64,000 bases of DNA from Nitrospirota bacterium (GCA_029858565.1 JAOUEV010000001.1:156678-220677); one strand, 5' to 3'; counted from the first letter of the stretch, positions 33,931 to 53,320 are shown. Notes: generated by a model from the letters alone, not told the origin. Translations and numbers: made by a program.

Positions 33931-33961
33931 AAAGCAGGACCCGGAATTAAGACTTCTCTGT

Positions 33962-34125
33962 ACTGCAGTGCGATGACATGCTCATGGCGAGCGGAGCAAA
34001 CTTTTTACGCCCGCAGCCTTGGCCGGTACCGTAGTATTTTCTCCGGTGATAACGATCTGGCCGGGGCTGTTGTAATTTGCAGGGGCAACTATACCATTTT
34101 TCGACACTTTGAGGCAAGTACTTTT
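33962..34125 (-). pseudogene. fabD: Degraded remnant of the native fabD
   Basis: Minus strand reads KSTCLKVSKNGIVAPANYNSPGQIVITGENTTVPAKAAG, then after a frameshift KKFAPLAMSMSSHCS. This matches the FabD motifs N-Y/F-N-S-P-G-Q and PL.VSVPSHC. It lies in the canonical slot before fabG. Confidence 0.85.
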
Positions 34126-34415
34126 CTAGGGAACCGGATCCGCGTGGGCTTGCGGGCTCAGGCGGCCCACCGTCGCTTTTGCACGCTCCCCCGGCATCTG
34201 GAGATGCGCGGTTATTGTCAAAATTAGACCGCAAAATCAGCCGGTTGTGCCGATAATTGTATTGATAAGTTCTCGTGCCCGTGCTATTTTTCTTCCATAG
34301 CTTCACGCAGGAATCTTTTCGCTGAAGGATCATGCGCTTTCACTGGATCGCTGGTTCTCGTGGGAGCGATCGTAGCGCAGAAATCGAGTCGTTTGTTCAA
34401 CCTGGGGGGGCTTCT

Positions 34416-34925
34416 ATGATCATCAAAGAGCTGAACGGGCATACCCCGAAGTTCGGTAAGGATTGTTTCCTGGCCGAGAATGCTGTTGTTATCGGTGATG
34501 TGGTGATGGGGGACCAGTGCAGTGTCTGGTACAATGCCGTCATCCGGGGCGATGTTCACTTCATTCGTATAGGGGATAAAGTGAACATCCAGGACGGAGC
34601 AGTGGTGCACTGCACCTATCAGACATCGCCGACCACGATCGGCAATAACGTCTCTATCGGACACAATGCCATCGTTCATGGCTGCACGATCCACGATAAC
34701 GTTCTTGTGGGCATGGGGGCGATCGTCATGGATGATTGCGTGATAGAAAGCAATTCGATCATTGCCGCCGGTGCAGTCGTCACCCACGGGACACGGGTGG
34801 AGGCGGGATCGGTGTTCGCCGGGGTGCCGGCGAAAAAGATCAAGAACGTCAGTCAGGAGCAGATCGCCAACGAGATCGAAGGCCGGGCGGACAATTACGT
34901 AAAATATGCCGCCTGGTACAAATAG
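34416..34925 (+). CDS. Gamma carbonic anhydrase family hexapeptide-repeat protein
   Basis: VIGDV, IRGD, NIQDGAVVH, IGHNAIVHGC, GVPAK. Confidence 0.9.
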   Translation: MIIKELNGHTPKFGKDCFLAENAVVIGDVVMGDQCSVWYNAVIRGDVHFIRIGDKVNIQDGAVVHCTYQTSPTTIGNNVSIGHNAIVHGCTIHDNVLVGMGAIVMDDCVIESNSIIAAGAVVTHGTRVEAGSVFAGVPAKKIKNVSQEQIANEIEGRADNYVKYAAWYK

Positions 34926-35091: not shown

Positions 35092-37101
35092 TCACGTCGT
35101 GAACGTGATGAGGACCTCATCGGTTTCCACCGCTTTGCCGACCGTCGCAGCCACCTCTTCCACGATCCCTTCGCAGGGCGAGGACACCCCGCTTTCCATT
35201 TTCATGGATTCGATGACCACCAGGTCCTGGCCGCGGTAGACGCGATCCCCTTTTTTGACCAGGATATTGACCACCATGCCGGGAAGGGGGGAGAGCAGCA
35301 TGTTCTCGGTGGAGCCTTTGGCTTCCTTCGGCATGTACTGGGCCAGCTCCCACTCTCCGGGCGTGTAGACCTCGAAGATGCGGGAATTGCCGCAATAGGC
35401 CGCCCAGATGAAGTTCTGCCGGTACTGGAGCCTGAAGTAGTGGTTCACGCTGTTGATCGACAGCTTCAATATGCGCCGGTAGAACTCGAACGCCGGCGTG
35501 ACTATGTTGTATTCCGTGCCGTTCACTTTGCAGTGCCAGTCCGGTGAGGCAAGCTCTCCTTCCAGTTCAACCTGAAAGATGTCGTTGTTGCCTTTGACCA
35601 CATAGCGGTGCAGGTGGTCCGGTTTGTGCGAGAGGCCGACCTTTGCCGCCATGGGCTTGAGGGATTCCCGGACCAGGTTCTTGCGGTTGTGATAGACGAT
35701 GGTCGCGGCGATGACCATGGCTGCGAGCTGTTCCATCGGCGGCTCGGCCTTGGCCGCGCCCTCCTCGAAATGCTGATCGATGAACCCGGTCGAGAGGTCG
35801 CCCTTGATGAAGGAGGGATGGTTCAGGATGGAGTTCGCGAAGTTCACGTTCGTGGTCACGCCTTCGATATGGTATCGGTTCAGCGCATTGATCAGGGAGG
35901 TCCGCGCCTGCTCCCGCGTCTCGCCCCAGCTGATCACTTTGGAGAGCAGTGAATCGTAGTAGACGCTGACGAAGCTGCCGGCCTCCACGCCGCTGTCGAG
36001 TCTGACGTTCCTGCCCTTGAGGTTCGAGTACCGGGTGATCAGTCCCGTCGAGGGAAGGAAGTTCCGCGACGAATCCTCGGCGCAGATCCTGGCCTCGATG
36101 GACCAGCCCTTGATCGAAACGTCCTTCTGCTTGATCGGCAGGGGCTCGCCTGATGCGACCTTGAGCTGCAGCTCCACGAGGTCGAGGCCCGTGACCATCT
36201 CGGTCACCGGGTGCTCCACCTGGAGCCGCGTGTTCATCTCCATGAAGAAGAAGTTCCTGTTGCCGTCCATGATGAATTCCACGGTGCCTGCGTTGGAGTA
36301 CCCCGCCTCGCGGGCCAATGCGCAGGCCAGCTCGCCCATGCGGGCCCTGAGCGCCTCGTCGACGGCAAGGGAAGGGGCTTCCTCGATCACCTTCTGGTAA
36401 CGCCGCTGGATCGAGCACTCCCGCTCTCCGAGATACAGTGCGTTCCCCTGCTTGTCGGCGATGATCTGGATCTCGATATGGCGGGGGGTGCTGATGAACC
36501 GCTCTAGGAATATCCGGTTGTCACCGAATGCCTTGCGGGTCTCCTCCTGTGCGGACTGGAGCGCGGATTCAAGTTCATGAGGCCCGGCGACCATACGCAT
36601 GCCCCGTCCGCCGCCTCCGGCAGCCGGCTTGAGCAGCACGGGATATCCGATCTCGGCGGCAAGCGCCCGTATCTCGTCGAGGTCGACGATGGGCAGGTTG
36701 TGGCCAACCACCACCGGCACCCCGGCCTTCATTGCGATGTTCTTGGCAGAAATCTTGTCTCCCAGAGCGGAGATCACCTCCGCCGAGGGCCCGATGAAGG
36801 TCAAGCCCGCGTTGGCCACGGCGGCGGCGAACTTCGAGTTCTCCGACAGGAATCCGTAGCCCGGGTGAACAGCCTGGGCGCCTGTTTCGAGCGCGGCGGT
36901 GACGATCTTTTCGTGCACCAGATAGGAGGACGTTGACGGCGCCGGACCTATGTGAACGGCCTCGTCGGCCTCCCGCACATGGAGCGAACGCGCGTCGGCG
37001 TCGGAGTAGACCGCCACGGTCTTGACCTTCAGCTTCCTGCAGGTCTTGATGATGCGGATCGCGATCTCACCACGGTTTGCTATAAGGATCTTGTCGAACA
37101 T
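35092..37101 (-). CDS. pccA: Propionyl/acyl-CoA carboxylase alpha (biotin carboxylase plus BCCP)
   Basis: ANRGEIA, HPGYGFLSEN, GGGGRGMR, EMNTRLQVEHPVTE, ESMKM biotin site. Confidence 0.9.
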   Translation of the reverse strand: MFDKILIANRGEIAIRIIKTCRKLKVKTVAVYSDADARSLHVREADEAVHIGPAPSTSSYLVHEKIVTAALETGAQAVHPGYGFLSENSKFAAAVANAGLTFIGPSAEVISALGDKISAKNIAMKAGVPVVVGHNLPIVDLDEIRALAAEIGYPVLLKPAAGGGGRGMRMVAGPHELESALQSAQEETRKAFGDNRIFLERFISTPRHIEIQIIADKQGNALYLGERECSIQRRYQKVIEEAPSLAVDEALRARMGELACALAREAGYSNAGTVEFIMDGNRNFFFMEMNTRLQVEHPVTEMVTGLDLVELQLKVASGEPLPIKQKDVSIKGWSIEARICAEDSSRNFLPSTGLITRYSNLKGRNVRLDSGVEAGSFVSVYYDSLLSKVISWGETREQARTSLINALNRYHIEGVTTNVNFANSILNHPSFIKGDLSTGFIDQHFEEGAAKAEPPMEQLAAMVIAATIVYHNRKNLVRESLKPMAAKVGLSHKPDHLHRYVVKGNNDIFQVELEGELASPDWHCKVNGTEYNIVTPAFEFYRRILKLSINSVNHYFRLQYRQNFIWAAYCGNSRIFEVYTPGEWELAQYMPKEAKGSTENMLLSPLPGMVVNILVKKGDRVYRGQDLVVIESMKMESGVSSPCEGIVEEVAATVGKAVETDEVLITFTT

Positions 37102-37123: not shown

Positions 37124-38677
37124 TCACAACGGAATATTCCCGTGCTTCCGCTGCGGCCGGTTCGTCCGTTTGTTCTCCAGGAACTGGAGGCTGCGGATCA
37201 GCCGGTGACGCGTTTCACGGGGGCTGATGACGTCGTCGATGAACCCGCGCTTTGCAGCCATGAAGGGATTGGCGTAGGCCTGCCGGTATTCTTCCGTTTT
37301 CCGGGCGAGCATCTCTTCGGGATTGGCGGCCTCGTCGATCTCCTTGCGGTAGATGATCTGCGCGGCGCCTTTGGGCCCGAGCACGGCGATCTCCGCCGCG
37401 GGCCAGGCAAGGTTCACGTCGCAGCCGATGTGCTTGGAGTTCATGACCACGTAGGCGCCGCCGTAGGCTTTCCGGATGATGACCGTGATCCGCGGCACCG
37501 TGGCTTCCGAGAAGGCATAGAGCAGCTTCGCGCCGTGCCGGATGATGCCGCCGTGCTCCTGCACCGGACCGGGCATGAACCCCGGGACGTCCTCGAGGCA
37601 GACGAGCGGGATATTGAAAGCGTCGCAGAACCGGACGAAGCGGGCGGCCTTTTCCGAGGCCTGGACGTCAAGGACGCCGGCGAGCACCGCGGGCTGGTTG
37701 GCGATGAGGCCGATGGTCTGGCCGCCGAGACGGCCGAATCCCACGATGATGTTCCGCGCGAAGTGGGGGTGGATCTCCAAAAACTCGGCCCCGTCCAGGA
37801 TGCTGGTGATGAGGATCTTCATGTCATAGGTCTGGTTCGGGTTCGCCGGGACCAGGTAATCCAGGGCTGGATCGGTGCGCTCGATCGGGTCCCGCAGGTC
37901 GAGGATCGGCGCCTGCTGGCGGTTGTTCGAAGGCAGGTAATTGATCAGACGCCGCACCTCGCGCAGGCAGAGGATGTCGTTGGGAAAGGCGAAATGGGCC
38001 ACGCCGCTCTTCTTGCTGTGCACCATGGCCCCGCCCAGGTCTTCCGCCGTGATGTCCTGGTGGGTGACGGTCTTCACGACGTTCGGCCCCGTGACGAACA
38101 TGTAGGAGGTGTGCTCGACCATGAAGGTGAAGTCCGTGATGGCCGGGCTGTAGACCGCGCCGCCGGCGCAGGGGCCCATGACGCAGGATATCTGCGGCAC
38201 TACCCCGCTTGCCTGCACATTGCGGTGGAATATCTCGCCGTAGGCAGCCAGGGATTCGACGCCTTCCTGGATGCGCGCGCCGCCTGAATCGTTCAGACCG
38301 ATGATCGGCGCGCCGACCCGGACAGCATGGTCCATGACCTTGCAGATCTTCTGGGAATGGGCCTCGCCGAGAGCGCCGCCCATGATGGTGAAGTCCTGGC
38401 TGAAGACGAACACCTCGCGTCCGTCGATGGTACCGTGGCCGGTGATCACGCCGTCGCCGGGAAACTCACCGACGCCGCTCGAGAGTCCCGCCCTGCCGGT
38501 CATCAGCAGATCGAACTCCTCGAACGAGCCTTCGTCGAGCAGCAGATCGATGCGCTCCCGCGCGGTGAGTTTGCCTTTCTTGTGCTGCGCGTCGATCCTC
38601 TTTGCGCCGCCGCCAAGAAGAGCTTCCTCTTTCATGGATTCAAGCTTTATCAGATTGTCCTGTCCGGGCTGCTGCAT
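37124..38677 (-). CDS. pccB: Propionyl-CoA carboxylase beta (carboxyltransferase)
   Basis: [41 protein letters not shown]. Confidence 0.92.
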
Positions 38678-38734: not shown

Positions 38735-39724
38735 TTATTTTCCGTTCCTGGTCTGCAAAAAGGCAAGCAGGCTGTCTGCCGCGGCGGCCGGCGACGTCTT
38801 CTTTTCTTCCACGTCCCTTCGTAACCGCGGAAGGGTTTCCCGAACATGCGGGCTGGCGTAGAACCATTGCCGCAATCCGTCATCAAGCAGGAAATTCATC
38901 CAGTCGAGGTCCTGGGCCTTTCTCTTTTCCGCCAGATCGCCGCTCTCCGTCAATTTGTCGCGATGGTCCAGGATGGTTTTCCAGATCGCATCGATCCCCT
39001 TGCCTTCCCTGGCGCTGCAGGTAAGGACCGGCGGGCGCCAATTCGGGCTGGCGGGCATGAGCATGTTCAAGGCCGACTGATACTCCTTCTGAGCGCTCTC
39101 GGCCCGCACCAGGTTGTCGCCGTCTGCCTTGTTGATGACAACGGCGTCGGCCACTTCGAGTACGCCTTTTTTCATGCCCTGCAGCTCGTCACCTGCTCCG
39201 GCGATCATCAGTACCAGGAAAAAATCGACCATGGAGGCGACGGTTGTCTCCGATTGCCCGACACCCATCGTCTCGATGATCACCACATCATAACCCGCGG
39301 CCTCGCACACGAGCAGGGTCTCCCGGGTCCTTCTGCCGACGCCGCCGAGCGTTCCCCCTGAAGGGGAGGGGCGGATAAAGGCGTTGGGATCGATTGCCAG
39401 CTTTTCCATGCGGGTCTTGTCGCCCAGGATACTGCCGCCGCTGCGGCTACTGCTCGGGTCGATGGCCAGGACGGCAACACGGTGCCCCTGGGCTGTGAGC
39501 ATGGTTCCGAACCGTTCGATGAAGGTGCTCTTGCCCGCGCCGGGAACTCCGGTGATGCCGACGCGGATGCTGCGGCCGGTATGCGGAAGGAGCCGGTCAA
39601 CGATGGTCCGGGCGAGCTCCTGATGGGCCGGAAGCGTGCTCTCGATGAGCGTGATGGTCTTGGCGAGCATCAGGCTGTCGCGGTTCAGTACGCCTGTTAC
39701 GTAGTGTTGGGGGTCCTGGATCAT
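38735..39724 (-). CDS. meaB: Methylmalonyl-CoA mutase-associated GTPase
   Basis: [13 protein letters not shown]...[15 protein letters not shown]. Confidence 0.95.
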
Positions 39725-41868
39725 ATTCTTCGAAGATATTTCTCTTCCAGCAGCGCAAGCGTTCTATCGGCCGACTCCGGGATCGGCGTCCCTGGCCCGA
39801 ACACAGCCTTGACCCCGGCCTTGTACAGGAAATCATAGTCCCTGGGAGGGATGACGCCGCCGGCGACAACGAGTATCTCTCCGCCGCCGATCCGTTTCAG
39901 CTCTTCGATCAGGGCGGGAATGAGCAGCTTGTGCCCGGCCGCAAGGGACGATGCGCCGACGACATGGACGTCGTTCTCGATGGCCATCTTCGCCGCTTCT
40001 TCAGGGCTCTGGAACATGGGGCTGATGTCCACATCGAAGCCGAGGTCGGCATAGGCGCTGGCTATTACTTTAAAACCCCGGTCATGGCCGTCCTGGCCCA
40101 TCTTGGTGACCAGGATGCGCGGCCTGCGGCCCTGCTTTTCCAGGAACGCCGTTGTCCGCCGGCGCAGCGCTGTGACCGCATTATTGTCGCCGCTGTATCC
40201 CGACGCATAGGCGCCGGAGATGCAGCGGGTCGTGGCCACGAAGCGGCCGAACACCGATTCCATGGCATCGGAGATCTCGCCCAGCGTGGCCCGGGCCCGG
40301 ACCGCGGGCAGTGCGGCCTCCAGCAGGTTGCCGCCATTCTTCGCCACGCTGGTCAGGTCTGCCAAGGCTTTTTCGACGGCCTTCTTGTCGCGGCTGGCCT
40401 TGATCTCTTTAAGGCGGCTGATCTGCTCGTCGCGAACGGTCGCCGGCACTTCCCGGACCTCGAAATCGATGGTCTCGTTGGCAAGCTTGTATTTGTTTAC
40501 GCCCACGATCACGTCGAGGCCCTGATCGACCCGTGCCTGCTTCCGTGCCGCCGACTCCTCGATGCGCAGTTTCGGCATGCCGCTCTCGATGGCCTTGGCC
40601 ATTCCGCCGAGCTTCTCGATCTCGTCGAATATTTTCTGGGCTTCACTGACGATGCTGCTGGTCAGTGATTCGAGATAGTACGAGCCGCCGAGGGGATCGA
40701 TGACATGACAGATCTCCGACTCCTCCTGGATGATGAGCTGGGTGTTGCGGGCGATGCGGCTGGAGAGGTCCGTCGGCAGGCCGATGGCCTCGTCAAATGA
40801 GTTCGTATGGAGGGACTGGGTGCCGCCGAGCGCGGCGGTCATGGCCTCGAGCGTGGTCCGGATGATGTTGTTGTAGGGGTCCTGCTCGGTGAGGCTCCAC
40901 CCCGATGTCTGGCAGTGGGTGCGGAGCATGGAGGACTTGGGGTTCCTGGGATTGAACTGGCTCATGAGCCGGTGCCAGAGGAACCTTGCCGCACGGAGCA
41001 TGGCAATGTCCATGAAGAAGTTCATGCCGATACCGAAGAAGAACGAGAGCCGCGGAGCAAAGGTATCCACATCCATGCCGCTCCTGAGCGCCGCCCGTAC
41101 GTACTCGACGCCGTCGGCAAGGGTGAAAGCCGTTTGCAGGACGCTGTTGGCGCCTGCTTCCATCATGTGGTAGCCGCTGATGCTGATCGTGTTGTACTTG
41201 GGCATCTCCCTGGAGCAATAGGCGATGATGTCCGCGACAATGCGCATTGACGGGGCAGGCGGGTAGATGTAGGTGTTCCGGGTGAGATACTCCTTGAGGA
41301 TGTCGTTCTGGATCGTGCCTTCGAGCTTGTCGCGGCTGACGCCCTGTTCCTCGGCGGCGATGATGTACATGGCGAGGATGGGAATGACCGCGCCGTTCAT
41401 GGTCATCGATACGGACATTCGGTCGAGCGGGATTCCGTTGAACAGGATCTTCATGTCCTCGACGGAATCGATTGCAACGCCGGCTTTGCCCACATCGCCC
41501 ACGACGCGCGGATGGTCGGAATCATACCCCCGGTGGGTCGCAAGATCGAAGGCAACGGACAGGCCTTTCTGGCCGGAGGCCAGGGCTGTATGGAAAAAGG
41601 CGTTCGATTCCTTTGCTGTCGAGAAACCGGCATACTGGCGGATGGTCCACGGCCGCCCCGTATACATGGTGGCCATGGGGCCCCGGACGTACGGAGCCAG
41701 GCCGGGGAGGGTGTTGACCGATTCCATGCCCTCCAGGTCCTCGGCAGTATAGAGCGGTTTGACGGTGATACCTTCCGGAGTTGTCCAGGAAAGCGTGTCC
41801 ACCGACTTTCCCTTCATCTCCTTTTCGGCGGTCTCTTTCCATTTTGGCAGATGCGGATGGTGTGCCAT
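39721..41868 (-). CDS. scpA: Methylmalonyl-CoA mutase (B12-dependent)
   Basis: [33 protein letters not shown]. Confidence 0.96.
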
Positions 41869-42058: not shown

Positions 42059-42460
42059 TCAACGCTCGCAGAGCTCGACCAGGACCCCTCCGGTGAACTT
42101 GGGGTGCAGGAAGGCGATCTTGGCGCCGCCCGCACCGGTTCGGGGTTTTTCGTCGATGAGCTGAATGCCTTTTTCCTTGAGCTCTTTCAGGGCCTCTTCG
42201 ATGTTCTCCACTCGGAAGGCGACATGCTGGAACCCGGGGCCCTTCTTTTCGATGAACTTTGCCACCGGCCCGTCGGGCGAGGTCGACTCGAGAAGCTCCA
42301 CCTCGCTGTCGCCGACGGGAAAAAAGGCTGTGGTCACTTTCTGTGCTTCCACCGTTTCCGAGCCTTCGAACTTCAGGCCGAGCACGTCGGACCAGAAGGA
42401 TTTTCCCTCGGTTATATTGTTGACAGCTATGCCGAGGTGGTCGATCTTGAGAATTTTCAT
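42059..42460 (-). CDS. mce: Methylmalonyl-CoA epimerase
   Basis: DHLGIAV, ELLE, HVAFRV, FLHPK...GVLVELCE. Confidence 0.95.
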
Positions 42461-42478: not shown

Positions 42479-43348
42479 TCAAAAAACTTTGGCGCAGAGA
42501 TCGCCGAACGTGCCGAGGTCCTCGCAGACATGGATGCCAGCTTCCTTCATGACCGCGATCTTTGACTGTGCCGTGCCGCTGTTCCCGCTGACGATCGCCC
42601 CTGCATGTCCCATGCGTCTGCCCGGGGGAGCGCTTAATCCTGCGACGAAACCGACCACGGGCTTGGTCACATTTGCCTTGATAAAGGCGGCAGCCTCTTC
42701 CTCTGCGGTACCGCCGATCTCGCCTACCATGACGATGCCCTTGGTCTCCTTGTCCTCCTGGAAGGCCTTGAGACAGTCGATGAAGTTCGTGCCGTTCACG
42801 GGATCGCCGCCGATGCCGACGCAGGTTGTCTGGCCAATGCCCTTCGAGGTCAGCTGATGCACCACCTCGTAGGTGAGGGTGCCGGAGCGTGACACAACGC
42901 CAATGGGGCCGCCGGGCTTATGGATGAAGCCGGGCATGATGCCGATCTTGCACCGGCCCGGCGTGATGATGCCCGGGCAGTTCGGTCCGATGAGCCGGGT
43001 CTTTTTCCCGGACAGAAGGTTCTTGATGCGCAGCATGTCGAGCACCGGAATGCCTTCGGTGATCGCGACAACGAGATCGATCTCCGCGTCGATCGCTTCC
43101 TTGATCGCTTGCGCGGCAAAGGCCGGAGGCACGAAGATCATGCTGCAGTTCGCTCCGGTTGCCTGCACAGCTTCCCGGACCGTATTGAATACCGGCACGG
43201 CGTCCATCATCTGCCCGCCCTTGCCGGGGGTCACGCCGGCCACGACCTGGGTGCCGTATTCGATGCACTGCCGTGTATGGAACTGGCCTTCCTTGCCGGT
43301 GATGCCCTGGACAAGCAGTTTTGTCTCATTATTTACGAAAATGGACAT
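42479..43348 (-). CDS. sucD: Succinyl-CoA synthetase alpha
   Basis: [27 protein letters not shown]. Confidence 0.96.
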
Positions 43349-43403
43349 GGTCTTCACTCTCACTAAAACCTGGATAAACCGGAGGCATATGATCAAAGGC
43401 GTC

Positions 43404-43487
43404 TCGCGCAAAGACGCCAAGACGCAAAGGAAAGCTAAGACGGAGCCTGTTGTTTGTCTTTCTTGGCGCCTTTGCGGCTTTGCGCGA
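43404..43487. repeat. Inverted CGCAAAG octamer arrays between sucC and sucD
   Basis: tcgcgcaaag acgccaag acgcaaag ... cttggcgc ctttgcgg ctttgcgcga. Confidence 0.85.
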
Positions 43488-43540: not shown

Positions 43541-44704
43541 TCACGCCCTGGCGATGGCCGCGATCTTTCCGGCGGCATCATGCAGGCTTTCGGCAGTGAT
43601 CAGGTTCAGCCCCGAGGCGGCCAGGATCTCCCTGCCTTTGTCCACGTTCGTTCCCATCATCCTGATCACCACAGGAACTTTAATGCCCGTCTTCCGGGCG
43701 GCCTTGACAACTCCCTCGGCCAGCACGTCGCACCGGAGGATCCCGCCGAAGATGTTGATCAGGATGCCCTTGACATTGGGGTCGCTCAGGATGATGCGAA
43801 AGCCGTTCTCGACCATCTCCTCGTTCGCACCGCCGCCAACGTCGAGGAAGTTCGCAGGCTCGGCGCCGGCGGCCTTGATGAGGTCCATGGTGGCCATGGC
43901 AAGGCCCGCGCCGTTCACCATGTTCCCGATGGTGCCGTGGAGGTTGATGTAGTTGAGGTTGTACTTCGAGGCTTCCACTTCCTTGGGATCCTCTTCATCG
44001 AGGTCCCGGTACTTCAGGAGATCCTTCTGCCGGAACAGGGCATTGTCGTCGATCTCCATCTTCGCGTCCAGCGCGATCAGGGTCTCCCGGTTGGTGATCA
44101 CGAGCGGATTGATCTCAAGCAACGAGCAGTCGGTCTTGATGAAAAGGCCGTACAGGTTCTCGACCAGCGTGGTGAACGCTACGGCAAGGGGACCGGCAAG
44201 GTCGAGACGCGCGGCGATCTCCCGGGATTGGCCAGGCTCGATCCCGGTAAGCGGATTGATCATGAGCTTGATTATCTTTTCGGGGTGCTGGGCAGCGACC
44301 TCTTCGATGTTCATGCCCCCGGCCCGGCTGGCAATGATCATGATCTTCGCAGTGGAACGGTCGGGCAGGATGGAGAAATAGAGCTCATGGGCGATATCAA
44401 GGCCTTGCTCGACCAGGAGCTTTCCGACCTTTTTCCCCTGAGGTCCTGTCTGGGGGGTTACGAGCGGTTTGCCCAGAATGGCTGCCGCAGTGCTTCGGAC
44501 CTCATCGATTGTCTTTGTGAGCTTGACGCCGCCGCCTTTGCCGCGGCCGCCGGCATGGATCTGCGCCTTGACCACCACGGGGAATCCGCCGAGCTTTGCC
44601 GCCGCTGCGCAGGCTTCGTCGGGGGTCGCAGCGATGTATCCTTCGGGCACAGGAATATGATGGTTCCGGAAAACTTCTTTGGCCTGATATTCGTGGATCT
44701 TCAT
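43541..44704 (-). CDS. sucC: Succinyl-CoA synthetase beta
   Basis: HEYQAK, KAQIHAGGRGKGGGV, EINPL, NGAGLAMATMD, NIFGGI. Confidence 0.96.
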   Translation of the reverse strand: MKIHEYQAKEVFRNHHIPVPEGYIAATPDEACAAAAKLGGFPVVVKAQIHAGGRGKGGGVKLTKTIDEVRSTAAAILGKPLVTPQTGPQGKKVGKLLVEQGLDIAHELYFSILPDRSTAKIMIIASRAGGMNIEEVAAQHPEKIIKLMINPLTGIEPGQSREIAARLDLAGPLAVAFTTLVENLYGLFIKTDCSLLEINPLVITNRETLIALDAKMEIDDNALFRQKDLLKYRDLDEEDPKEVEASKYNLNYINLHGTIGNMVNGAGLAMATMDLIKAAGAEPANFLDVGGGANEEMVENGFRIILSDPNVKGILINIFGGILRCDVLAEGVVKAARKTGIKVPVVIRMMGTNVDKGREILAASGLNLITAESLHDAAGKIAAIARA

Positions 44705-44725: not shown

Positions 44726-45568
44726 CTATTCGATCTGGCGTGCAAGGCCGGCAAGAACGGTCCCCGGGCCGACCTCGATGAACGTGTCAGCGCCTTGACC
44801 ACGCAGGCTTTTGACCGTCTCGACCCACCGCACACTGCTGGTGATCTGTTTGACGAGGTTCGATGCGACAGCATCATCCGTGTACGGCTGAGCGCTGCAG
44901 TTGGCGATGCAGGGGATCTTCAGTTTGTTGAAGCTGAATCCCTTCAGGAATGTCTGGAACTCGTCCGCAGCCGGCTTCATATAGCGGCTGTGAAAAGCGC
45001 CGCTGACTGGGAGAATGACCGCGCGCCGGGCCCCTTTGTCCTTGAGCCGGGGAGCAAATGCTTCGATGTCAGCCTTGGGACCGGAAATTACCGTCTGGCC
45101 CGGGGAATTGAAATTGGCGACATCAATACTTCCGGCCCCCAACTCGGCCAGGGCCGACGCAACGGCATCGCCCGTCATGCCCAGGATAGCTGCCATGCCG
45201 CCGCCGGTGGCCGCGTTCATCAGTGCGCCGCGCTTCTGGACCAGCTTGAGGCCGACGCCAAAATCGAATGCACCCGCGGCATACAACGCGGCATATTCGC
45301 CCAGGCTGTGGCCGATCACGAAATCCGGCCTGATCTTCTCATCCTCGACCTTCGCCAGATAGCTGAGGCTATCGACGACATACAGCGCGGGCTGGGTGTA
45401 ATCGGTACGCTTGAGCCTGTCGTCAGGATCGGTGAGGCAGAGTTCCTTGATCGAATAGCCGAGGATCGCGTCTGCTTCAGCGACCAGGTCGGGATATCGA
45501 TCGAAGAGCCCTGATCCCATCCCCACGGATTGGGAGCCCTGCCCGGGGAACATAAACACTAGTGCCAT
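44726..45568 (-). CDS. fabD: Malonyl-CoA:ACP transacylase, PksC/trans-AT-like
   Basis: FPGQGSQ, ILGYSIKELCL, TQPALYVV, GHSLGEY, NFNSPGQ, VSGAFHS, EVGPG. Confidence 0.9.
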   Translation of the reverse strand: MALVFMFPGQGSQSVGMGSGLFDRYPDLVAEADAILGYSIKELCLTDPDDRLKRTDYTQPALYVVDSLSYLAKVEDEKIRPDFVIGHSLGEYAALYAAGAFDFGVGLKLVQKRGALMNAATGGGMAAILGMTGDAVASALAELGAGSIDVANFNSPGQTVISGPKADIEAFAPRLKDKGARRAVILPVSGAFHSRYMKPAADEFQTFLKGFSFNKLKIPCIANCSAQPYTDDAVASNLVKQITSSVRWVETVKSLRGQGADTFIEVGPGTVLAGLARQIE

Positions 45569-45750: not shown

Positions 45751-47646
45751 CTACTTCTTCCCGTACCCGATGCCCTTGATGGCCTCCTCGATCTCCGGGA
45801 GGATCGCCGGGTCGTCGATGGTCGAGGGCATGGTGTAGGACTCGCCGTCGGCGATCTTGCGCATGGTCCCGCGCAGAATCTTGCCGGACCGGGTCTTGGG
45901 CAGCCGCTTCACCACCGCCGTCTCCTTGTAGCAGGCGATGGGGCCGATCTGGTCGCGGATGAGCAGCGAGAGTTCTTTCTGGATCTCGGCAGCAGAGCGG
46001 TTCGCGCCGGACTTCAGCACGCAAAGACCGACCGGGACCTGGCCCTTGAGACCGTCGTGCACGCCGATGACCGCGCATTCGGCCACGTCCTTGTGCGTGG
46101 CAACGACCTCCTCCATCTCGCCCGTGGAAAGCCGGTGGCCTGCCACATTGATCACGTCGTCCACGCGGCCCATGATGTAGACATACCCGTCCTTGTCGAC
46201 GTGGCCGCCGTCGGCGGTGAAGTAGTAGCCCGGGAAGGGGTTGATGTAGGATTCCTGGAATCTCTGGTCAGCGTTCCAGAGCGTTGGAAGCGTGCCGGGA
46301 GGCAGGGGGAGTTTTACGGTCACAAGCCCCTCGGTCTCCGCCGGGACCTCCTTGCCGTTCGTGTCGAGGATCCGCACGTCGAAGCCCGGCACGGGCTTGG
46401 TGGACGAGCCCGGCTTCACGGGGAACTGCTCTATGCCCATGGAGTTGGCGGTGATGGGCCAGCCGGTCTCGGTCTGCCACCAGTGGTCGATAACCGGCTT
46501 CTTCAAAAGGTTGCTTGCCCAGTGATAGGTGTCCGGATCCAGCCGTTCGCCGGCCAGGAAGAGGGCGCTGAACTTCGAAAGGTCGTACTTCTTCACGAAC
46601 TCGCCGTTGGGATCCTCTTTCTTGATGGCCCGGAAGGCCGTCGGCGCGGTGAACAGCACCTTCACGTTGTGCTGGGATATGACGCGCCAGAAGGCGCCGG
46701 CGTCGGGCGTACCGATGGGCTTGCCCTCGTACACGATGGTGGTGCAGCCTGTCAGGAGCGGCGCGTAGACGATGTAGGAGTGGCCGACCACCCAGCCCAC
46801 GTCCGAGGCTGCCCAGAAAACCTCGCCTGGCTTTACGTTGTAGATGTTCTCGACGCTCCAGCGCAGAGCCACGGCGTGTCCGCCGTTGTCCCGCACGATG
46901 CCCTTGGGCTTGCCCGTGGTGCCGGAGGTGTAGAGGATATAGAGGGGATCGGTTGCCTTGACCGGCACGCACTCGGCGGGCTTCGCCGTGGCCACAGCTT
47001 CGTTCCAGTCCACGTCTCGTCCCGGAGTGAGCGCGGCCTTCACGAGATCGCGCTGGAATATGACGCATTTCTCGGGCTTGTGGTGCGACTCCGCGATGGC
47101 ACGGTCTATCAGGGGCTTGTATTCGAGGACCTTGGCGCCTTCCTTGGCGCCCGAGGCGGTGACGATGACCTTGGGCTTCGCGTCGTCGATGCGGATTGCA
47201 AGCTCGTGGGGCGCGAAGCCTCCGAACACCACTGAGTGGGTTGCGCCGAGGCGGGCGCAGGCCAGCATGGCGATGACGGCCTGCGGGATCATGGGCATGT
47301 AGATGATGACCGTCGTGCCCTTCTCCACGCCGAGGCCGCGGAGGGCTCCGGCGAAGAGGGCAACCTCGTCGCGAAGCTCCCGGTAAGTGTATTTCCTGAT
47401 GGTGTTCGTGACCGGGCTGTCGTAAATGAGCGCCGTCTGGTCGGCCCGGCCGCTGTCCACGTGGCGGTCAAGAGCATTGTGGCAGGTGTTCAGCTCTGCG
47501 CCGGAGAACCAGCGGTAGAAAGGTTTGTTCGAATCGTCAAGGACCTTGTTCCACTTCCTCGACCACGTTATCGTTTCCGCCGCGTCGCCCCAGAACCCCT
47601 CCGGGTCCTTGATGCTCCTCTGAAATAGATCGTTGTATTTCCCCAT
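45751..47646 (-). CDS. prpE: Propionyl-CoA synthetase (AMP-forming)
   Basis: YTSGTTGKPKG, SDVGWVVGHSY, DHWWQTETG, GRVDD, LPKTRSGKILR. Confidence 0.9.
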   Translation of the reverse strand: MGKYNDLFQRSIKDPEGFWGDAAETITWSRKWNKVLDDSNKPFYRWFSGAELNTCHNALDRHVDSGRADQTALIYDSPVTNTIRKYTYRELRDEVALFAGALRGLGVEKGTTVIIYMPMIPQAVIAMLACARLGATHSVVFGGFAPHELAIRIDDAKPKVIVTASGAKEGAKVLEYKPLIDRAIAESHHKPEKCVIFQRDLVKAALTPGRDVDWNEAVATAKPAECVPVKATDPLYILYTSGTTGKPKGIVRDNGGHAVALRWSVENIYNVKPGEVFWAASDVGWVVGHSYIVYAPLLTGCTTIVYEGKPIGTPDAGAFWRVISQHNVKVLFTAPTAFRAIKKEDPNGEFVKKYDLSKFSALFLAGERLDPDTYHWASNLLKKPVIDHWWQTETGWPITANSMGIEQFPVKPGSSTKPVPGFDVRILDTNGKEVPAETEGLVTVKLPLPPGTLPTLWNADQRFQESYINPFPGYYFTADGGHVDKDGYVYIMGRVDDVINVAGHRLSTGEMEEVVATHKDVAECAVIGVHDGLKGQVPVGLCVLKSGANRSAAEIQKELSLLIRDQIGPIACYKETAVVKRLPKTRSGKILRGTMRKIADGESYTMPSTIDDPAILPEIEEAIKGIGYGKK

Positions 47647-48051: not shown

Positions 48052-49242
48052 TCAACCTCGAACTTCCCTGAACTTCTTGATCATCTCCGTCAGGACCTCG
48101 GTGACATCGCCCACGATGCCGTATGTCGCAACGTTGAAGATCGGCGCGTCGGGGTCCTTGTTGATGGCCACGATCGTTTCCGACGACTGCATGCCGGCAA
48201 CGTGCTGGATCGCGCCAGAGATGCCGCAGGCGATGTACAGCTTGGGGCAGACCGTCTTGCCGGTCTGCCCCACCTGGTGGGAGTAGGGGATCCACCCCTC
48301 GTCAACGGCCCCGCGGGTTGCGGCGACCGCGCCGCCCAGGACCTTGGCGAGTTCTTCAAGCAAGAGGAAGTTCTTCCGGCTTCCCAGCCCCCGTCCGCCT
48401 GCCACGATGATGTCCGCCTCGCAGATGTTCACGGTCTCGGTCAGCTCATCGACGGTCTTGAGCACCTTCGTGCGGACCGGACCGGAAGGCGTGTATTTCA
48501 CGTCGATGATCTCGCCCTTGCGGGAGTCGTCCCGCTGCGCAGGCTTCATGACCTTGTGGCGCACCGTGGCCATCTGGGGCCGGTGATTGGGCGTCACGAT
48601 CGTGGCCATGATGTTGCCGCCGAAGGCCGGACGGGTCTGGTGCAGATGGCCGGTGGCGTCATCGATATCAAGCATGGTGCAGTCCGCAGTGAGGCCCGCG
48701 TAGAGGGTCGACGCAACCTTGGGGAAGAAGGAGCGGCCGATGGCAGTCGCGCCAGCAAGGATGATCTCGGGTTTGTGCTGCTGTGCAAGCGCAGTCAGGA
48801 CCGCTGCGTAGGAATCGTCATTAAAATGTTCCAGCGCCGGGTCATTGCAGACGTACACGGCGTCCGCGCCATGGGCGATAAGCTCCTGTGCCTTGCTGCT
48901 GATCCCGGACCCGACGAGCACGGCCGAGAGCTTTGCCTTTTTCTTGTCTGCAAGCTTCCTGCCTTCGCCCAGAAGCTCGATGGACACGCTCGCGATACTG
49001 CCTTTATGCTGTTCAGCAAACACCCATACGCCCTTGTAGGCTGACAGGTCCTTTGCCGGACCGGTCGCTTCGATGGTCTTCTCAATGGCCTGGAACTGGC
49101 ATGCCTCGACGCAGGCGCCGCACATGGTGCAGGCATCGGTGATGACGGCCTTGCCGTCCTTCATCTCGATAGCGCCGAAGGGGCAGGCGGAAACACAGGT
49201 TTCGCAGCCGGTGCAGATATCCGGTTTGACTTTCACGCTCAC
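48052..49242 (-). CDS. etfA: Electron transfer flavoprotein alpha with N-terminal 2[4Fe-4S] ferredoxin domain
   Basis: [12 protein letters not shown] and [11 protein letters not shown]; [27 protein letters not shown]. Confidence 0.95.
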
Positions 49243-49261
49243 GACGAACTCCTTGAAATTT

Positions 49262-50047
49262 CTAGATCAACGATTGTTCCTTGAGTTTTTTAGCAACTGC
49301 CGCCACCTGGTCGGCCACAGAGCCGGAGAGCATCTCGCGGCCCCCGCGGGGCGCAGGGGGGAAGATCCTGACGACCTGGGTCGGCGAGCCCTTGAGCCCG
49401 AGCTTGTTCTCGTCGGCGTTCACGTCCTTGGCGCTCCAGGCGGTCACCTTGAGGCTCTTGGCCTTCATCTTGCCCTTGAGCGAAGGGACGCGGGGCTGGT
49501 TGATCTCTTTCACCACCGTGATCAGGCAGGGGAGCGAGGTCTCGACGACGTCGTAGCCCTCGTCCATCATGCGCTCAACCACCATGGTGTCGTTCTCGAC
49601 CTTCTCGATCTTCCTTATATAGGCTATGAAGGGGATGCCGAGCATGTCCGCGGTCTCAGGACCCACCTGCGCGGTGTCTCCGTCAATGGCCTGCTTTCCC
49701 GCGATCACGAGGTCGTACTGGCCGATCTTCCGGATCCCCATGGAAAGGGCGTAGGAGGTCGCCCAGGTGTCTGCGCCGGCGAATGCCCGGTCCGACAGGA
49801 GCACCACGTCGTCCACGCCGAGCGAGACCGCTTCCTTGAGCGCTTCCGCGGCCTGGGGAGGCCCCATGGTAAGGGCCGTCACCTTGCCGCCGTGCTTCTC
49901 CCGCAAGCGGAGCGCTTCTTCGATGGCGAACATGTCAAAGGGGTTGATGATGCTCGGCACACCGTCGCGGATAAGGGTGTTGGTTTCCCGGTTGATCTTC
50001 ACTTCCGACGTGTCCGGGACCTGTTTGACCAGAACGATGATGTTCAT
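49262..50047 (-). CDS. etfB: Electron transfer flavoprotein beta
   Basis: KQVPD, INPFD, MGPPQA, FAGADTWATS, QAIDGDTAQVGP. Confidence 0.95.
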   Translation of the reverse strand: MNIIVLVKQVPDTSEVKINRETNTLIRDGVPSIINPFDMFAIEEALRLREKHGGKVTALTMGPPQAAEALKEAVSLGVDDVVLLSDRAFAGADTWATSYALSMGIRKIGQYDLVIAGKQAIDGDTAQVGPETADMLGIPFIAYIRKIEKVENDTMVVERMMDEGYDVVETSLPCLITVVKEINQPRVPSLKGKMKAKSLKVTAWSAKDVNADENKLGLKGSPTQVVRIFPPAPRGGREMLSGSVADQVAAVAKKLKEQSLI

Positions 50048-50066
50048 ATATCTGTTCTCCGAATGA

Positions 50067-50092
50067 GGGCGGCCACGCGGGGCCGCCCCTAC
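50067..50092 (-). repeat. GTAG-type REP palindrome
   Basis: Minus strand GTAG-GGGCGGCC-ccgcgt-GGCCGCCC. Confidence 0.7.
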
Positions 50093-50105
50093 TGGCGTCT
50101 TGCGG

Positions 50106-51263
50106 TTATTTCTGCCTTGTCGCTTCCTTGACCATGTCGAGGCCGATCACGGTGCGCTGGATCTGGTTGGTGCCCTCGTAGATCTGGAGGATCTTGGCGT
50201 CGCGCATCATCTTCTCGACGGGGTATTCCTTCATATAGCCCGAGCCGCCCATCACCTGGACAGCGTCGGTGGTGACTTTCATTGCCGTGTCGGTAGCGAA
50301 GAGCTTGGCCATTGCCGATGCGCGGGAGAAGTCTTTGGCGCCGCTGTCGATCATCCGGGCGGCGTTGTAGACCAGGGAACGGGCCGCTTCGGTCATGGTC
50401 TGCATGTCCGCGAGCATGTGCTGGACCGCCTGGAAGGAGGTGACCGGCTGGCCGAACTGGACCCGGCCCTTGGCGAACTTGATGCACTCGTCGATGGCGC
50501 CCTGGGCAACGCCGACGCCCTGGGAGCCCACGCCTGCGCGGGAACTGTCGAGGGTCTTCATGGCCACGATGAAGCCCATGCCCTGCTTGGCGATGAGGTT
50601 CTCCTTGGGGATGCGGCAGTTGTTGAAGATGAGCTCGGTCGTGGAGGACGACCGGATGCCCATCTTGTTCTCCTTCTTGCCGAAGGTAAAGCCCGGGGTG
50701 CCTTTTTCCACCACAAAGGCCGACGCGCCGCGGGGGCCTCTGGACTTGTCCGTAATGGCGATGATGGTGTAGATGTCCGCCTCACCGCCGTTGGTGATCC
50801 ACTGTTTCGTGCCGTTCACGACATACTCATTACCTTCGAGCTTTGCCGTGGTCTGAATGCCGCTCGCGTCGCTGCCCGCATTCGCCTCGGTCAGGCCGAA
50901 AGCGACCAGCTTTTTGCCCGCTGCGATGTCGGGCAGATATTTCTTCTTCTGTTCATCGGAGCCGAAGAGCAGGATGGGATAGGTGCCCAGCGCGTTGGCC
51001 GCGTAGGTCGTGGAGACGCCGAGGCAGGCCTTGGAGATCTCCTCGATGGCGATGTAGAAGTCGAGGGTGCCCCGGCCCATGCCGCCGTATTCCTCGGGGA
51101 TGTAGAGGCCCATGAGGTCGGCCTGCGCCATGGCCTTCATGATGTCCGTGGGGAACTTGTTATGTTCGTCCAGTTCCGCCCGGACAGGAACGATCTTCTC
51201 GACCGCGATCTGACGGGCCAGATCACGGATCATCAGTTGTTCTTCGGTCAGCAAATAATCCAT
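50106..51263 (-). CDS. Acyl-CoA dehydrogenase (Bcd-like)
   Basis: LTEANAGSD, GTKQWITNG, KMGIRSS, RVQFG, GGSGY, IYEGTNQIQR. Confidence 0.93.
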   Translation of the reverse strand: MDYLLTEEQLMIRDLARQIAVEKIVPVRAELDEHNKFPTDIMKAMAQADLMGLYIPEEYGGMGRGTLDFYIAIEEISKACLGVSTTYAANALGTYPILLFGSDEQKKKYLPDIAAGKKLVAFGLTEANAGSDASGIQTTAKLEGNEYVVNGTKQWITNGGEADIYTIIAITDKSRGPRGASAFVVEKGTPGFTFGKKENKMGIRSSSTTELIFNNCRIPKENLIAKQGMGFIVAMKTLDSSRAGVGSQGVGVAQGAIDECIKFAKGRVQFGQPVTSFQAVQHMLADMQTMTEAARSLVYNAARMIDSGAKDFSRASAMAKLFATDTAMKVTTDAVQVMGGSGYMKEYPVEKMMRDAKILQIYEGTNQIQRTVIGLDMVKEATRQK

Positions 51264-51329
51264 TACAGCCTCCGCGCTACAGAATTTTTATAAAAAGAGA
51301 TGAACCCGGATGAATTCTTGTTTTGTCGG

Positions 51330-52310
51330 TCACCAGCGGATCAGCGCCGATGCCCAGGTCAGGCCGCCGCCGAAGGCTTCGAGCAGGAGGAGGTCGTTGT
51401 CCTTGACCTTGCCTTCGCGGACCGCTTCGTCCAGCGCCATGGGGATCGATGCGGCCGAGGTGTTCCCGTACTTGTGGATCGTGAGCATGACCTTTTCCAT
51501 GGGCATGTTCAGCCGCTTGGCCATTGCCTGGATGATCCGGAGGTTCGCCTGGTGCGGGATCAGGAGGTCTATCTCCTCGGGCTTTACTTTATTGTGGGTC
51601 AGCGCCTCTTCCACCACCTCTTCAAGCGCGCGCACGGCGACCTTGAAGGTCTCGTTGCCTTTCATCTTGATGTAGTGCTGCCTCCGCTCGACAGTGTCGG
51701 CGGTCGCGGGATGGGCCGCGCCGCCCGCCGGGATGTGCAGCAGGTCCCCGAAGTTCCCGTCGGAATGGAGATGGGTCGAGAGGACCCCGCGCTTGCCCGC
51801 GTGGCGCTGGAGAACGGCCGCGCCGGCGCCGTCACCGAAGAGCACGCAGGTCGTGCGGTCCTCCCAGTCAGTGAACCGGGAGAGCGCCTCGGCTCCCACG
51901 ACGAGGATGGTCGTGTACATGCCGCTTTTGATGAAGGCGTCGGCGATGGAAATGCCGTAGAGGAATCCGGAACAGGCTGCATAGACGTCAAATGCCGCCG
52001 CTTTCTTGGCATGGAGCTTGGATTGGAGCACGCAGGCCGTGCTCGGCATGGCCGTGTCCGGCGTGAGCGTGCCCACGATGATCAGGTCGATGTCCTGGGC
52101 TGCGATGCCCGCGGCCTTGATCGCCTTGTGGCCGGCCTCGTAGGCGAGGTCCGATGTGGTCTGGCCTTTTTCGCAGACCCGCCGTTCCCTGATCCCCGTG
52201 CGTTCCACGATCCAGTCGTCGCTCGTCTCGACCATCTTCTCGATGTCGTGGTTGGTCAGCACCTTTTTTGGCGCGTAGGACCCGGTTCCGATAATACGTG
52301 CGTGGATCAT
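51330..52310 (-). CDS. fabH: 3-oxoacyl-ACP synthase III
   Basis: AACSGF, LFGDGAGA, PHQANLRII, YGNTSAAS, FGGGLTW. Confidence 0.96.
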   Translation of the reverse strand: MIHARIIGTGSYAPKKVLTNHDIEKMVETSDDWIVERTGIRERRVCEKGQTTSDLAYEAGHKAIKAAGIAAQDIDLIIVGTLTPDTAMPSTACVLQSKLHAKKAAAFDVYAACSGFLYGISIADAFIKSGMYTTILVVGAEALSRFTDWEDRTTCVLFGDGAGAAVLQRHAGKRGVLSTHLHSDGNFGDLLHIPAGGAAHPATADTVERRQHYIKMKGNETFKVAVRALEEVVEEALTHNKVKPEEIDLLIPHQANLRIIQAMAKRLNMPMEKVMLTIHKYGNTSAASIPMALDEAVREGKVKDNDLLLLEAFGGGLTWASALIRW

Positions 52311-53320
52311 TTGTTCTTAGCCAGCTCCATATTGCATGCGATATCTTCGTGGATGTGGCGGTTCACTTCGCTCTTCGCGAACTCCACGGCCACGCGGATG
52401 GCGTTCTTGATCGCCCGGTCCGAGGAACGGCCGTGGGATATGATGCTGATGCCGTTGATGCCGAGGAGCGGGGCGCCGCCGTATTCAGCGTAGTCCATTT
52501 TCCGCTTCAGCGCCTGGAACGCCGGACGCATGAGGATGTAGCCCGCCTTGCGGAGCGGGTTGGATCCGATATTCTCGCGCAGGATCGCGCCGATGGCCTC
52601 TGCCACACCCTCCGCGGTCTTGAGCACCACGTTCCCGATGAATCCGTCGCAGACGATGACGTCGGCCTTGCCCATCATCACGTCGCGGCCTTCCACGTTC
52701 CCGATGAAGGTCAGCGTGGTCTCCCGGAGGAGCTTGTAGGTTTCCTTGGTGAGCTCGTTCCCCTTGGTCTCCTCCTCGCCGATGGACAGGAGCCCGACGC
52801 GGGGGTTCGGGTTTCCGAGCAGGTGTTTTGCGAACACCTCTCCCATGACGGCGAATTGGACCAGATGGCTCGGCTTGCAGTCCACGTTGGCGCCGAGGTC
52901 GAGGACAACCGATGACCCCTTGACCGTCGGCATGATCATGGCGATGGCGGGCCGCTCGACGCCCTCGATCGTTCCCAGGACGAATAGGGACGCGGCCATG
53001 GCCGCGCCGGTGTGGCCAGCGCTGATCACTGCGACGGCCTCGCCGCTCTTGACGAGCTCGTTGGCAACGCGGATCGACGAGTCCTTTTTCCTGCGGAAGA
53101 CCGTGGCGGGCGAGTCAAGCATGTCCACGACCTGGGTGGCGTTCCGGATCTCGATAGGAAGGGACGCTGCTGCAGGGTGGTTCTTAAGCTCGGCCTCGAT
53201 GGACTCCCGGAGGCCGACAAGGATGATGCCCACACCGTATTCCTGCGCCGCCTGCACTGCACCGGCGACAACGGCCCGTGGCGCGAAGTCACCACCCATG
53301 GCGTCAACTGCGATCTTCAT
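52307..53320 (-). CDS. plsX: Phosphate acyltransferase
   Basis: AVDAMGGD, RPAI, DLGAN, GEEETKG, DGFIGN, HGRS. Confidence 0.96.
   Translation of the reverse strand: MKIAVDAMGGDFAPRAVVAGAVQAAQEYGVGIILVGLRESIEAELKNHPAAASLPIEIRNATQVVDMLDSPATVFRRKKDSSIRVANELVKSGEAVAVISAGHTGAAMAASLFVLGTIEGVERPAIAMIMPTVKGSSVVLDLGANVDCKPSHLVQFAVMGEVFAKHLLGNPNPRVGLLSIGEEETKGNELTKETYKLLRETTLTFIGNVEGRDVMMGKADVIVCDGFIGNVVLKTAEGVAEAIGAILRENIGSNPLRKAGYILMRPAFQALKRKMDYAEYGGAPLLGINGISIISHGRSSDRAIKNAIRVAVEFAKSEVNRHIHEDIACNMELAKNK

Follow-up and report, generated by a model that had tools for sequence, protein, structure and literature searches.

FabD, the malonyl-CoA:acyl carrier protein (ACP) transacylase (MCAT), is regarded as an invariable and essential part of the core machinery with which bacteria make fatty acids, and the roles of its Ser-His dyad, carboxylate-binding arginine and oxyanion glutamine are known from the enzyme of Escherichia coli. 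FabD can also fill in for missing acyltransferases (ATs). Deletion of fabD is lethal in E. coli (PMC3896788). Among the trans-acting ATs (trans-ATs) of polyketide synthases (PKSs), DisD, the DSZS AT of the disorazole synthase (PDB 3RGI, 3SBM, 5ZK4), serves an AT-less modular PKS, and PksC and PksE belong to the bacillaene synthase of Bacillus (PDB 5DZ6, 5DZ7). The stretch analyzed here, called the window, comprises 64,000 nucleotides of contig 14 (156678-220677) in the metagenome-assembled draft genome of an uncultivated Nitrospirota bacterium (G000; G-labels denote genomes and L-labels fetched loci). It contains a 280-residue open reading frame (ORF), here named FabDx, whose sequence places it firmly in the trans-AT clade and which seems to have displaced the FabD of its host lineage, an interpretation largely supported by the evidence below. 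In a clade of Nitrospirota, fatty-acid synthesis appears to depend on an acyltransferase related to the trans-ATs of polyketide synthesis.

44726..45568, minus strand: FabDx, discrete malonyl-type acyltransferase of the trans-AT clade, 280 aa, sole PF00698 gene of the assembly

FabDx and its relation to FabD and trans-AT enzymes

The FabDx gene starts with ATG and is flanked by a gene for an acyl-CoA synthetase of the Acs/PrpE family (45751-47646) and by sucC (43541-44704), which begins 21 nt downstream. The placement between prpE and sucC, the GAFHS motif and the N-terminal motifs that a first-pass annotation, made from the sequence alone, had reported were all recovered in the translation. 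The motifs comprise GQGSQ (residues 9-13), GHSLGE (86-91), KRG (112-114) and GAFHS (190-194); GHSLGE together with GAFHS is the malonyl-type combination in the literature on AT specificity and is taken as predicting malonyl preference. With 280 residues, the protein is about 30 residues shorter than the canonical FabD of the family (~310).

FabDx scored 132.8 bits with PF00698, the acyltransferase fold, and 349.9 bits with TIGR00128, the NCBIfam equivalog model for fabD, which is above the cut-off of 260.9 bits; by TIGR00128 alone it would be a plain 'FabD'. The PksC-like and PksE-like enzymes of Bacillus also pass the same model, with 409 and 395 bits, and therefore TIGR00128 cannot separate housekeeping FabD from trans-ATs. 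For annotation, this means that a curated fabD model merges the two kinds of enzyme. The names given to the FabDx clade in records from the JGI source switch between FabD and trans-AT naming. The assignment of FabDx as the malonate decarboxylase subunit MdcH was rejected, as TIGR03131 gave 202.5 bits against a cut-off of 297.9 bits and the neighboring genes include no mdc genes.

The first-pass annotation had likened FabDx to the PksC-type trans-ATs. Among solved structures, the best matches were DisD (306 bits), 6MHP (an unnamed MCAT, 300 bits), PksC (299 bits), PksE (283 bits) and 3G87 (258 bits); all further PDB chains listed scored at most 204 bits, and E. coli FabD scored 189.5 bits. FabDx is 37-42% identical to the FabDs of its own family (169-201 bits, compared with 546-547 bits to other FabDx genes) and 32-46% identical to fab-flanked acyltransferases from many phyla, while its closest relatives outside Nitrospirota reach 49-54% and have no fab neighbors. 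A search of representative proteins was uninformative, its best 150 matches being multi-AT proteins, mostly multi-module PKSs, ranked by summed scores.

In a first tree of 90 rows, which had many long branches, FabDx grouped with trans-AT enzymes at an SH-like approximate likelihood ratio test (SH-aLRT) value of 86. The more careful tree had 53 rows after 37 were dropped, namely the long-branch rows (L147, L077, L077b, L074, L074b, L099, L137, L145, L079 and L102) and redundant FabDx, canonical, cyanobacterial, Nocardia, Victivallales and cis-AT rows. Here, 12 FabDx sequences, seven ATs from PKS contexts and four Legionellaceae ATs formed one clade (ultrafast bootstrap, UFBoot, 100 / SH-aLRT 99; branch 0.44), and all fab-context FabDs (27/27) fell outside it, the Nitrospirota canonical FabDs grouping with FabD of Bacillus and Paenibacillus. 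The approximately unbiased (AU) test rejected a clade of FabDx and Nitrospirota canonical FabD (delta lnL 82.4, p 0.00128), a p-value weakened by the fact that groups and rows were fixed after a first tree had been seen. By the trees and this test, FabDx lies outside the housekeeping radiation of its own lineage, which supports the xenologous displacement that had been proposed; a grouping with the FabD of the host lineage had been named beforehand as evidence that would refute it.

The likeness to PksC holds at the level of the clade and of the best structural matches (DisD, PksC and PksE), but the nearest sisters of FabDx are standalone acyltransferases of Legionella and Tatlockia (94/90). 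Deeper in the clade, the branching order has support of only 63/13 and 75/32; consequently, FabDx could be a sister line and not a descendant of a PKS enzyme. The seven nearest loci outside Nitrospirota were scanned with Pfam (18 large ORFs). KS-rich megasynthases (KS, ketosynthase) without AT domains were found in L061, L069 and L070, and AT-AT proteins of ~1,100 residues with a C-terminal FabD helical-insert domain in L060 and L061; that of L060 also has an NMO-type reductase domain, and these proteins appear to be of the AT-AT-ER (enoylreductase) type. No PKS was found among the large ORFs scanned in the Legionellaceae loci L063, L064 and L065.

Loss of the canonical fabD

FabDx had been reported as the only intact fabD of the window. 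The whole assembly (3.9 Mb, 144 contigs, estimated completeness 100%) was searched with the FabDx protein, with PF00698 (E up to 10) and with TIGR00128, and no second intact gene of the acyltransferase fold was found, which extends the claim to the assembly; an intact canonical fabD elsewhere in the genome, named beforehand as what would speak against displacement, did not appear. The sole additional match was a fabD relic, found with TIGR00128 at E 0.003. The closed chromosomes of three other carriers hold FabDx-type genes only, with one copy each in G041 and G043 and two in G042. A fourth closed chromosome, that of G044, which is outside the family, contains FabDx and an uninterrupted canonical-type gene adjoining etfA.

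Five matches to PF00109 (KS) were found in the genome, all in open frames of at most 479 aa, and thus no modular PKS is present that FabDx could supply; FabDx does not accompany an AT-less modular PKS, either nearby or elsewhere in the genome. Outside the window, contig 129 (~11212-13154) holds two adjacent KS-like genes with frames of 419 and 420 aa (PF00109 scores of 120 and 61 bits), which resemble the paired KS and chain-length factor of a small type II system; such a system would also need malonyl-ACP.

The relic, for which the first-pass annotation had given the motif SSHC, was confirmed in two frames between a hexapeptide-repeat gene and fabG. It stands exactly where canonical fabD sits in the family, between etfA and fabG.

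33953..34131, minus strand: fabD relic, ~180 bp, codons ~142-204 of 310, directly upstream of fabG
34088..34117, minus strand: candidate promoter of fabG-acpP-fabF within the relic, TTGCCT-18 nt-TATAGT with an upstream TG

Compared with a canonical FabD of the same genus, codons 142-190 are 61% identical in one frame and codons 182-204, which carry SSHC, are 52% identical in the other; the DNA alignment covers 185 bp, includes 17 gaps and shows 72% identity. The damage consists of a frameshift, a five-codon deletion and the loss of both the 5' part and everything past codon ~204. The relic is followed by 31 bp of the native fabD-fabG spacer, and no 5' remnant of fabD was detected in the 405-bp gap between etfA and prpE, even at E 10. 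One could suppose that FabDx is the vertical FabD of the lineage, relocated by rearrangement, and that the relic is a stray partial duplicate, and the TIGR00128 score and a base composition like that of the flanks would suit such a history. It is nonetheless highly improbable: the relic has both the sequence and the position of the canonical gene, identities, trees and the AU test set FabDx apart from the family FabDs, and G001 and G002, which belong to the same genus as G000, have canonical fabD and no FabDx.

The family is the sole one in the GTDB class of the organism, and all 64 of its species genomes were searched with FabDx. The FabDx type (87-89% identity) was found in six of them, G000, G003, G019, G060, G070 and G079. 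G000 and G003 belong to one genus, G060 and G070 to another, and G019 and G079 to separate ones; all four genera also include members with the canonical type only (38-42% identity). The fused methylmalonyl-CoA mutase of the block that carries FabDx (at least 89% identity) occurs in the same six genomes and in 0/58 others, whereas a different mutase (45-48% identity) is present in eight genomes, of which G070 and G079 also have the block type. An uninterrupted canonical fabD was found in none of the six carriers, compared with 49 of the 58 non-carriers. Partial or split canonical matches were seen in 7/58 non-carriers. G021, G066 and G073 have partial matches only, probably because of contig ends; in G014, G047, G050 and G051, which lack FabDx and consist of at most 10 contigs, the gene is split, stop-containing or shortened. 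The latter breaks are probably frameshift errors of long reads and call for caution with pseudogenes in such assemblies. No match to canonical fabD was obtained in the family search for G049 (65% complete) and G069 (90% complete).

Several stages of the takeover are visible within the family. In G000, G019 and G060, the block lies within the fab operon and a stump of fabD precedes fabG. In G079, the block is on a separate contig and 87 bp of fabD are left between etfA and fabG. In G070, the block is elsewhere and fabD is nearly full-length but damaged: it has a 1-nt deletion and is altered at 10 of the 135 columns invariant among 22 canonical genes (Q62K and, within GHSLGE, E93G are examples), compared with 0-5 in a leave-one-out control. 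These substitutions are better evidence of decay than the frameshift. Canonical fabD was not found in G003, where the operon contig stops in etfA and the block contig opens with the synthetase. G044, outside the family, still holds both genes whole. A foreign contig piece joined into the draft during assembly or binning is conceivable for a metagenome-assembled genome of 144 contigs; such an artefact is highly improbable, given that a single 220-kb contig spans the block together with the native genes on either side, that the order etfA-block-relic-fabG is repeated in G019 and G060, and that the contig ends of G003 are compatible with it.

The segment common to all four relics (G000, G019, G060 and G079) spans fabD codons ~138-160 and includes the promoter-like site, and the 87-bp remnant of G079 is essentially this segment by itself. 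In the relic region, two promoter-like sites were seen against 0.4 expected from shuffles. Among the 22 canonical family genes, conservation at third codon positions is 0.85-0.95 at codons 136-160 and 0.44-0.77 elsewhere, and this unusual conservation suggests a constraint on the DNA itself. A promoter embedded in fabD probably drives fabG-acpP-fabF, which would make the relic a clear case of a promoter within a coding sequence outliving its gene. This conservation of the promoter-like site at synonymous positions extends across genera in the 22 family genomes. The fab cluster of E. coli has several promoters but none directly upstream of fabG (PMC3896788).

Based on this evidence, FabDx is most likely the working MCAT for fatty-acid synthesis. 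Q10, S88, R113 and H193, together with the GHSLGE and GAFHS motifs, are invariant across 27 FabDx sequences, in which 123 of the 280 columns are invariant. Since FabDx is the sole homologue, canonical fabD is decayed in carriers and acpP is unchanged, we infer that FabDx malonylates AcpP. It must work with an unchanged carrier, because acpP is 96-97% identical to that of the same-genus genomes that keep canonical FabD (G001 and G002). The residues of E. coli FabD that contact AcpP include K189/R190/L192, K279 and K286/R287 (bioRxiv 10.1101/2020.05.15.098798). Relative to these, and by an alignment to family canonical FabD made by eye, FabDx retains the basic pair 189/190, in the form RR, as well as R287 (E. 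coli numbering).

The proposed mechanism is that FabDx would now be the sole transacylase for fatty-acid synthesis, acting as a discrete and malonyl-specific enzyme from the clade to which the trans-acting PKS ATs belong. By homology, it would follow a ping-pong route, in which Ser88, activated by His193, would accept malonate from malonyl-CoA, while Arg113 would grip the carboxylate and Gln10 would contribute to the oxyanion hole. The housekeeping AcpP, itself unchanged, would then receive the malonyl group on its phosphopantetheine arm. The FabDx gene would have come within the 13-kb block of the methylmalonyl-CoA pathway, set between etfA and fabD, and the native fabD would have turned redundant or been truncated by the insertion of the block. 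It would then have decayed to one selected segment, the embedded promoter. In this account, the gene order, the relic, the placement in the clade and the joint distribution of FabDx, block and fabD decay are observed, while activity toward AcpP, promoter activity, essentiality and the direction of transfer are predicted.

The inserted block and its spread

In the direction of falling coordinates, the minus strand carries yceD, plsX, fabH, acyl-CoA dehydrogenase (ACAD), etfB, ferredoxin-fused etfA, acyl-CoA synthetase, FabDx, sucC, sucD, epimerase, mutase, MeaB and two carboxylase subunits, followed by the hexapeptide gene (plus strand), a non-coding stretch, fabG, acpP, fabF and rnc.

48052..53320, minus strand: native upstream part of the fab operon, its order kept in 9/9 canonical-type loci
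52307-53320, minus strand: plsX
51330-52310, minus strand: fabH
50106-51263, minus strand: ACAD
49262-50047, minus strand: etfB
48052-49242, minus strand: etfA, ferredoxin-fused
45751..47646, minus strand: acyl-CoA synthetase of the Acs/PrpE family, left end of the block, not in canonical fab operons
43541..44704, minus strand: sucC, succinate--CoA ligase beta subunit
42479..43420, minus strand: sucD, succinate--CoA ligase alpha subunit (ORF as listed; homology from residue 25)
42059..42460, minus strand: methylmalonyl-CoA epimerase (TIGR03081 157.6 bits, cut-off 114.95)
39721..41868, minus strand: methylmalonyl-CoA mutase, fused 715-aa form
38735..39724, minus strand: MeaB, mutase-associated GTPase
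37124..38677, minus strand: acyl-CoA carboxylase carboxyltransferase subunit (PccB/MmdA-like)
35092..37101, minus strand: acyl-CoA carboxylase subunit with biotin carboxylase and biotin carboxyl carrier protein (PccA-like)
34332..34925, plus strand: hexapeptide-repeat gene, gamma-carbonic-anhydrase-like, right end of the block
31466..33864, minus strand: native downstream part of the fab operon, with fabG (33124-33864), acpP (32829-33065) and fabF (31466-32725)

Nine canonical-type loci were fetched (G001, G002, G012, G013, G064, G076, G078, G081 and contig 1 of G070), and all nine have, to the contig limits, the order (yceD-plsX-fabH-)ACAD-etfB-etfA-fabD-fabG-acpP-fabF. ACAD-etfB-etfA is therefore native to the fab operon of the family. 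The insert runs from the acyl-CoA synthetase through the hexapeptide gene (~34332-47646, 13 kb), between etfA and the fabD relic, and the hexapeptide gene accompanies the block in G019, G060 and G070. The catabolic block described in the first-pass annotation thus stands from prpE through the hexapeptide gene, but ACAD-etfB-etfA does not belong to it.

Some features of these genes deserve mention in their own right. The synthetase scored 779 bits with the propionate--CoA ligase model, under its cut-off of 955 bits. A 157-aa ORF at 42009-42482 (minus strand), with a G+C content at third codon positions (GC3) of 0.40, is probably not a gene, and the epimerase frame 42059-42460 is preferred; gene calling by the longest ORF would mis-annotate this region, as that ORF overlaps the true frame. 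The block carboxylase was considered as the sole source of malonyl-CoA in the cell, which was dropped, as the genome contains two more genes with carboxyltransferase domains at other places, interpreted as accD-like and accA-like. In G019, G060 and G070, a second, divergent carboxyltransferase that is 56-59% identical to the block PccB and has no counterpart in the window is found beside or inside the block, accompanied by a small biotin-carrier-like ORF (L120 2122-6280, L122 1-3112 and L124 9759-13535). The trio of ACAD, EtfB and ferredoxin-fused EtfA between fabH and fabD (48052-51263 in the window; also L114-L118, L128 and L129) recurs at all fetched loci of the family and is common in other Nitrospirota. 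Its best models are the acryloyl-CoA reductase components AcrC/AcrA, with scores under the cut-offs, and the trio might carry out the enoyl reduction when these bacteria make fatty acids.

FabDx is confined neither to the present genome nor to the six family genomes, as it was also found in ~20 other Nitrospirota species genomes. In total, 26 Nitrospirota loci at 76-89% identity were obtained, plus two loci with fragments at 80%. In records of Thermodesulfovibrionia, Thermodesulfovibrio and Nitrospiraceae, the usual order is plsX-fabH-ACAD-etfBA-FabDx-(prpE)-sucCD-mutase-meaB-pccBA. Five of the 26 fetched loci end too near FabDx to judge its neighbors; in 20 of the 21 with enough downstream sequence, FabDx lies at most ~2 kb from sucC, prpE or pccB. 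The exception is L056, in which FabDx follows etfA in the fab operon and no block gene occurs within 10 kb downstream. L056 belongs to G042, whose two FabDx copies (L054 and L056) are 76-77% identical to that of the window and which has no canonical fabD. Next to the L054 copy are prpE, the hexapeptide gene and a sucC reduced to its first 43 codons, and the block itself seems to be decaying in G042. It had also been proposed that an essential function was tied to the block, making the block hard to lose. As L056 suggests, such retention would bind the FabDx gene rather than the block.

The close company of FabDx and block genes raises another explanation, namely that the function of FabDx is tied to the propionate block or to a different acyl-carrier system, such as draining malonyl-CoA from a promiscuous carboxylase, loading methylmalonate or feeding the KS pair of contig 129, while malonyl-ACP for fatty acids is made by an unseen route. 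The 20 of 21 judgeable loci, the spacing of 21 nt to sucC here and the existence of that KS pair all favor it. We consider it improbable, though, in view of the genome without another PF00698 gene at E up to 10, the three closed chromosomes with FabDx only, the malonyl-type motifs and the L056 copy in a fab operon without downstream block genes. Moreover, in 6/6 carriers the canonical fabD either has decayed or was not found, and it is intact in 49/58 others, as functional redundancy with FabDx predicts.

The FabDx sequences of the family make up a single clade (100/97) that nests within the remaining FabDx, which fits an import of FabDx into the family, although the root within the clade is not fixed. 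Between G070 and G079, which belong to different genera and have the block outside the operon, FabDx, SucC, SucD, mutase and MeaB are 95-96% identical, compared with 78-86% for PlsX, FabH, EtfB and EtfA. The same five block proteins are only 84-92% identical between G070 and its congener G060, and prpE is 78% identical. Block similarity thus does not track genus, which suggests that the block has moved among lineages of the family. The block is also a mosaic, because its mutase is a fused 715-aa protein in the family and split (40-51% identity) in other Nitrospirota. A broader scenario, which we put forward tentatively and hold to be doubtful, is that the block spreads laterally as a metabolic island, entering the conserved fab operon or recombining by way of it, brings its own malonyl transferase and lets the host fabD decay until only the needed promoter survives, and is then more likely to be retained since FabDx cannot be shed. 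In the same tentative vein, FabDx may be kept beside the acyl-CoA carboxylase because the two would make up a self-contained supply line of malonyl-ACP.

Besides the 'FabD' name given by TIGR00128, the circumstances of the AU test and the low support deep in the trans-AT clade, several points weigh against displacement as read here. The assembly is in 144 contigs, so another fabD could sit in a gap. In G070, the frameshift comes after an A5 run in a 10-contig assembly; because of this run and the similar breaks in G014, G047, G050 and G051, sequencing error is a live explanation, for G070 alone. At the equivalents of K279 and K286, as placed by eye, FabDx has T and A and so lacks two of the basic residues with which E. 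coli FabD binds AcpP. No integrase, transposase or other mobility genes were seen around the block, and its G+C and GC3 are the same as those of the flanks, so that composition gives no sign of foreign origin. The activity of FabDx, finally, is argued from sequence.

Comparison with known systems

The kinds of event involved, xenologous displacement and cross-talk of loading enzymes between fatty-acid synthesis (FAS) and PKS, are already known, but literature searches, whose coverage excluded subscription journals, yielded no description of FabD being displaced by an enzyme from the trans-AT clade. What is unusual here is that several decay stages are visible, that the displacement is coupled to an accessory catabolic block and that a promoter-bearing stump was left. 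The system offers a natural test of the interchangeability of FAS and PKS loading enzymes and a worked example of an accessory metabolic block that would have acquired an essential function.

DisD, the best solved match (over residues 4-279), aligns with FabDx at GQGSQ, GHSLGE, KRG..LM and AFHSR, and both are discrete enzymes of ~280 residues. They differ in context, as FabDx sits among genes of the methylmalonyl-CoA pathway and fab genes rather than with an AT-less modular PKS, and at the position of E. coli R287, which is R in FabDx and A in DisD. The PksC and PksE homologues of Bacillus nakamurai are 52% identical to FabDx and fall inside the same 100/99 clade, although they are not its closest sisters. 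This bacterium keeps a separate housekeeping FabD beside plsX, fabG and acpP, in addition to its pksC/D/E-like trio. With E. coli FabD (1MLA/6U0J), FabDx shares the PF00698 fold, the catalytic residues and presumably the reaction, and like FabD elsewhere it is the only such gene in its genome. It differs in scoring only 189.5 bits to the E. coli enzyme and in belonging to a clade that contains none of the 27 fab-context FabDs. The opposite kind of cross-talk, in which housekeeping FabD loads AT-less PKS lines or hybrid lines of nonribosomal peptide synthetase and PKS, is reported (PMC12828459, PMC13096860). It shows that one kind of enzyme can substitute for the other; here the direction is reversed, with an enzyme of the trans-AT clade probably serving fatty-acid synthesis.

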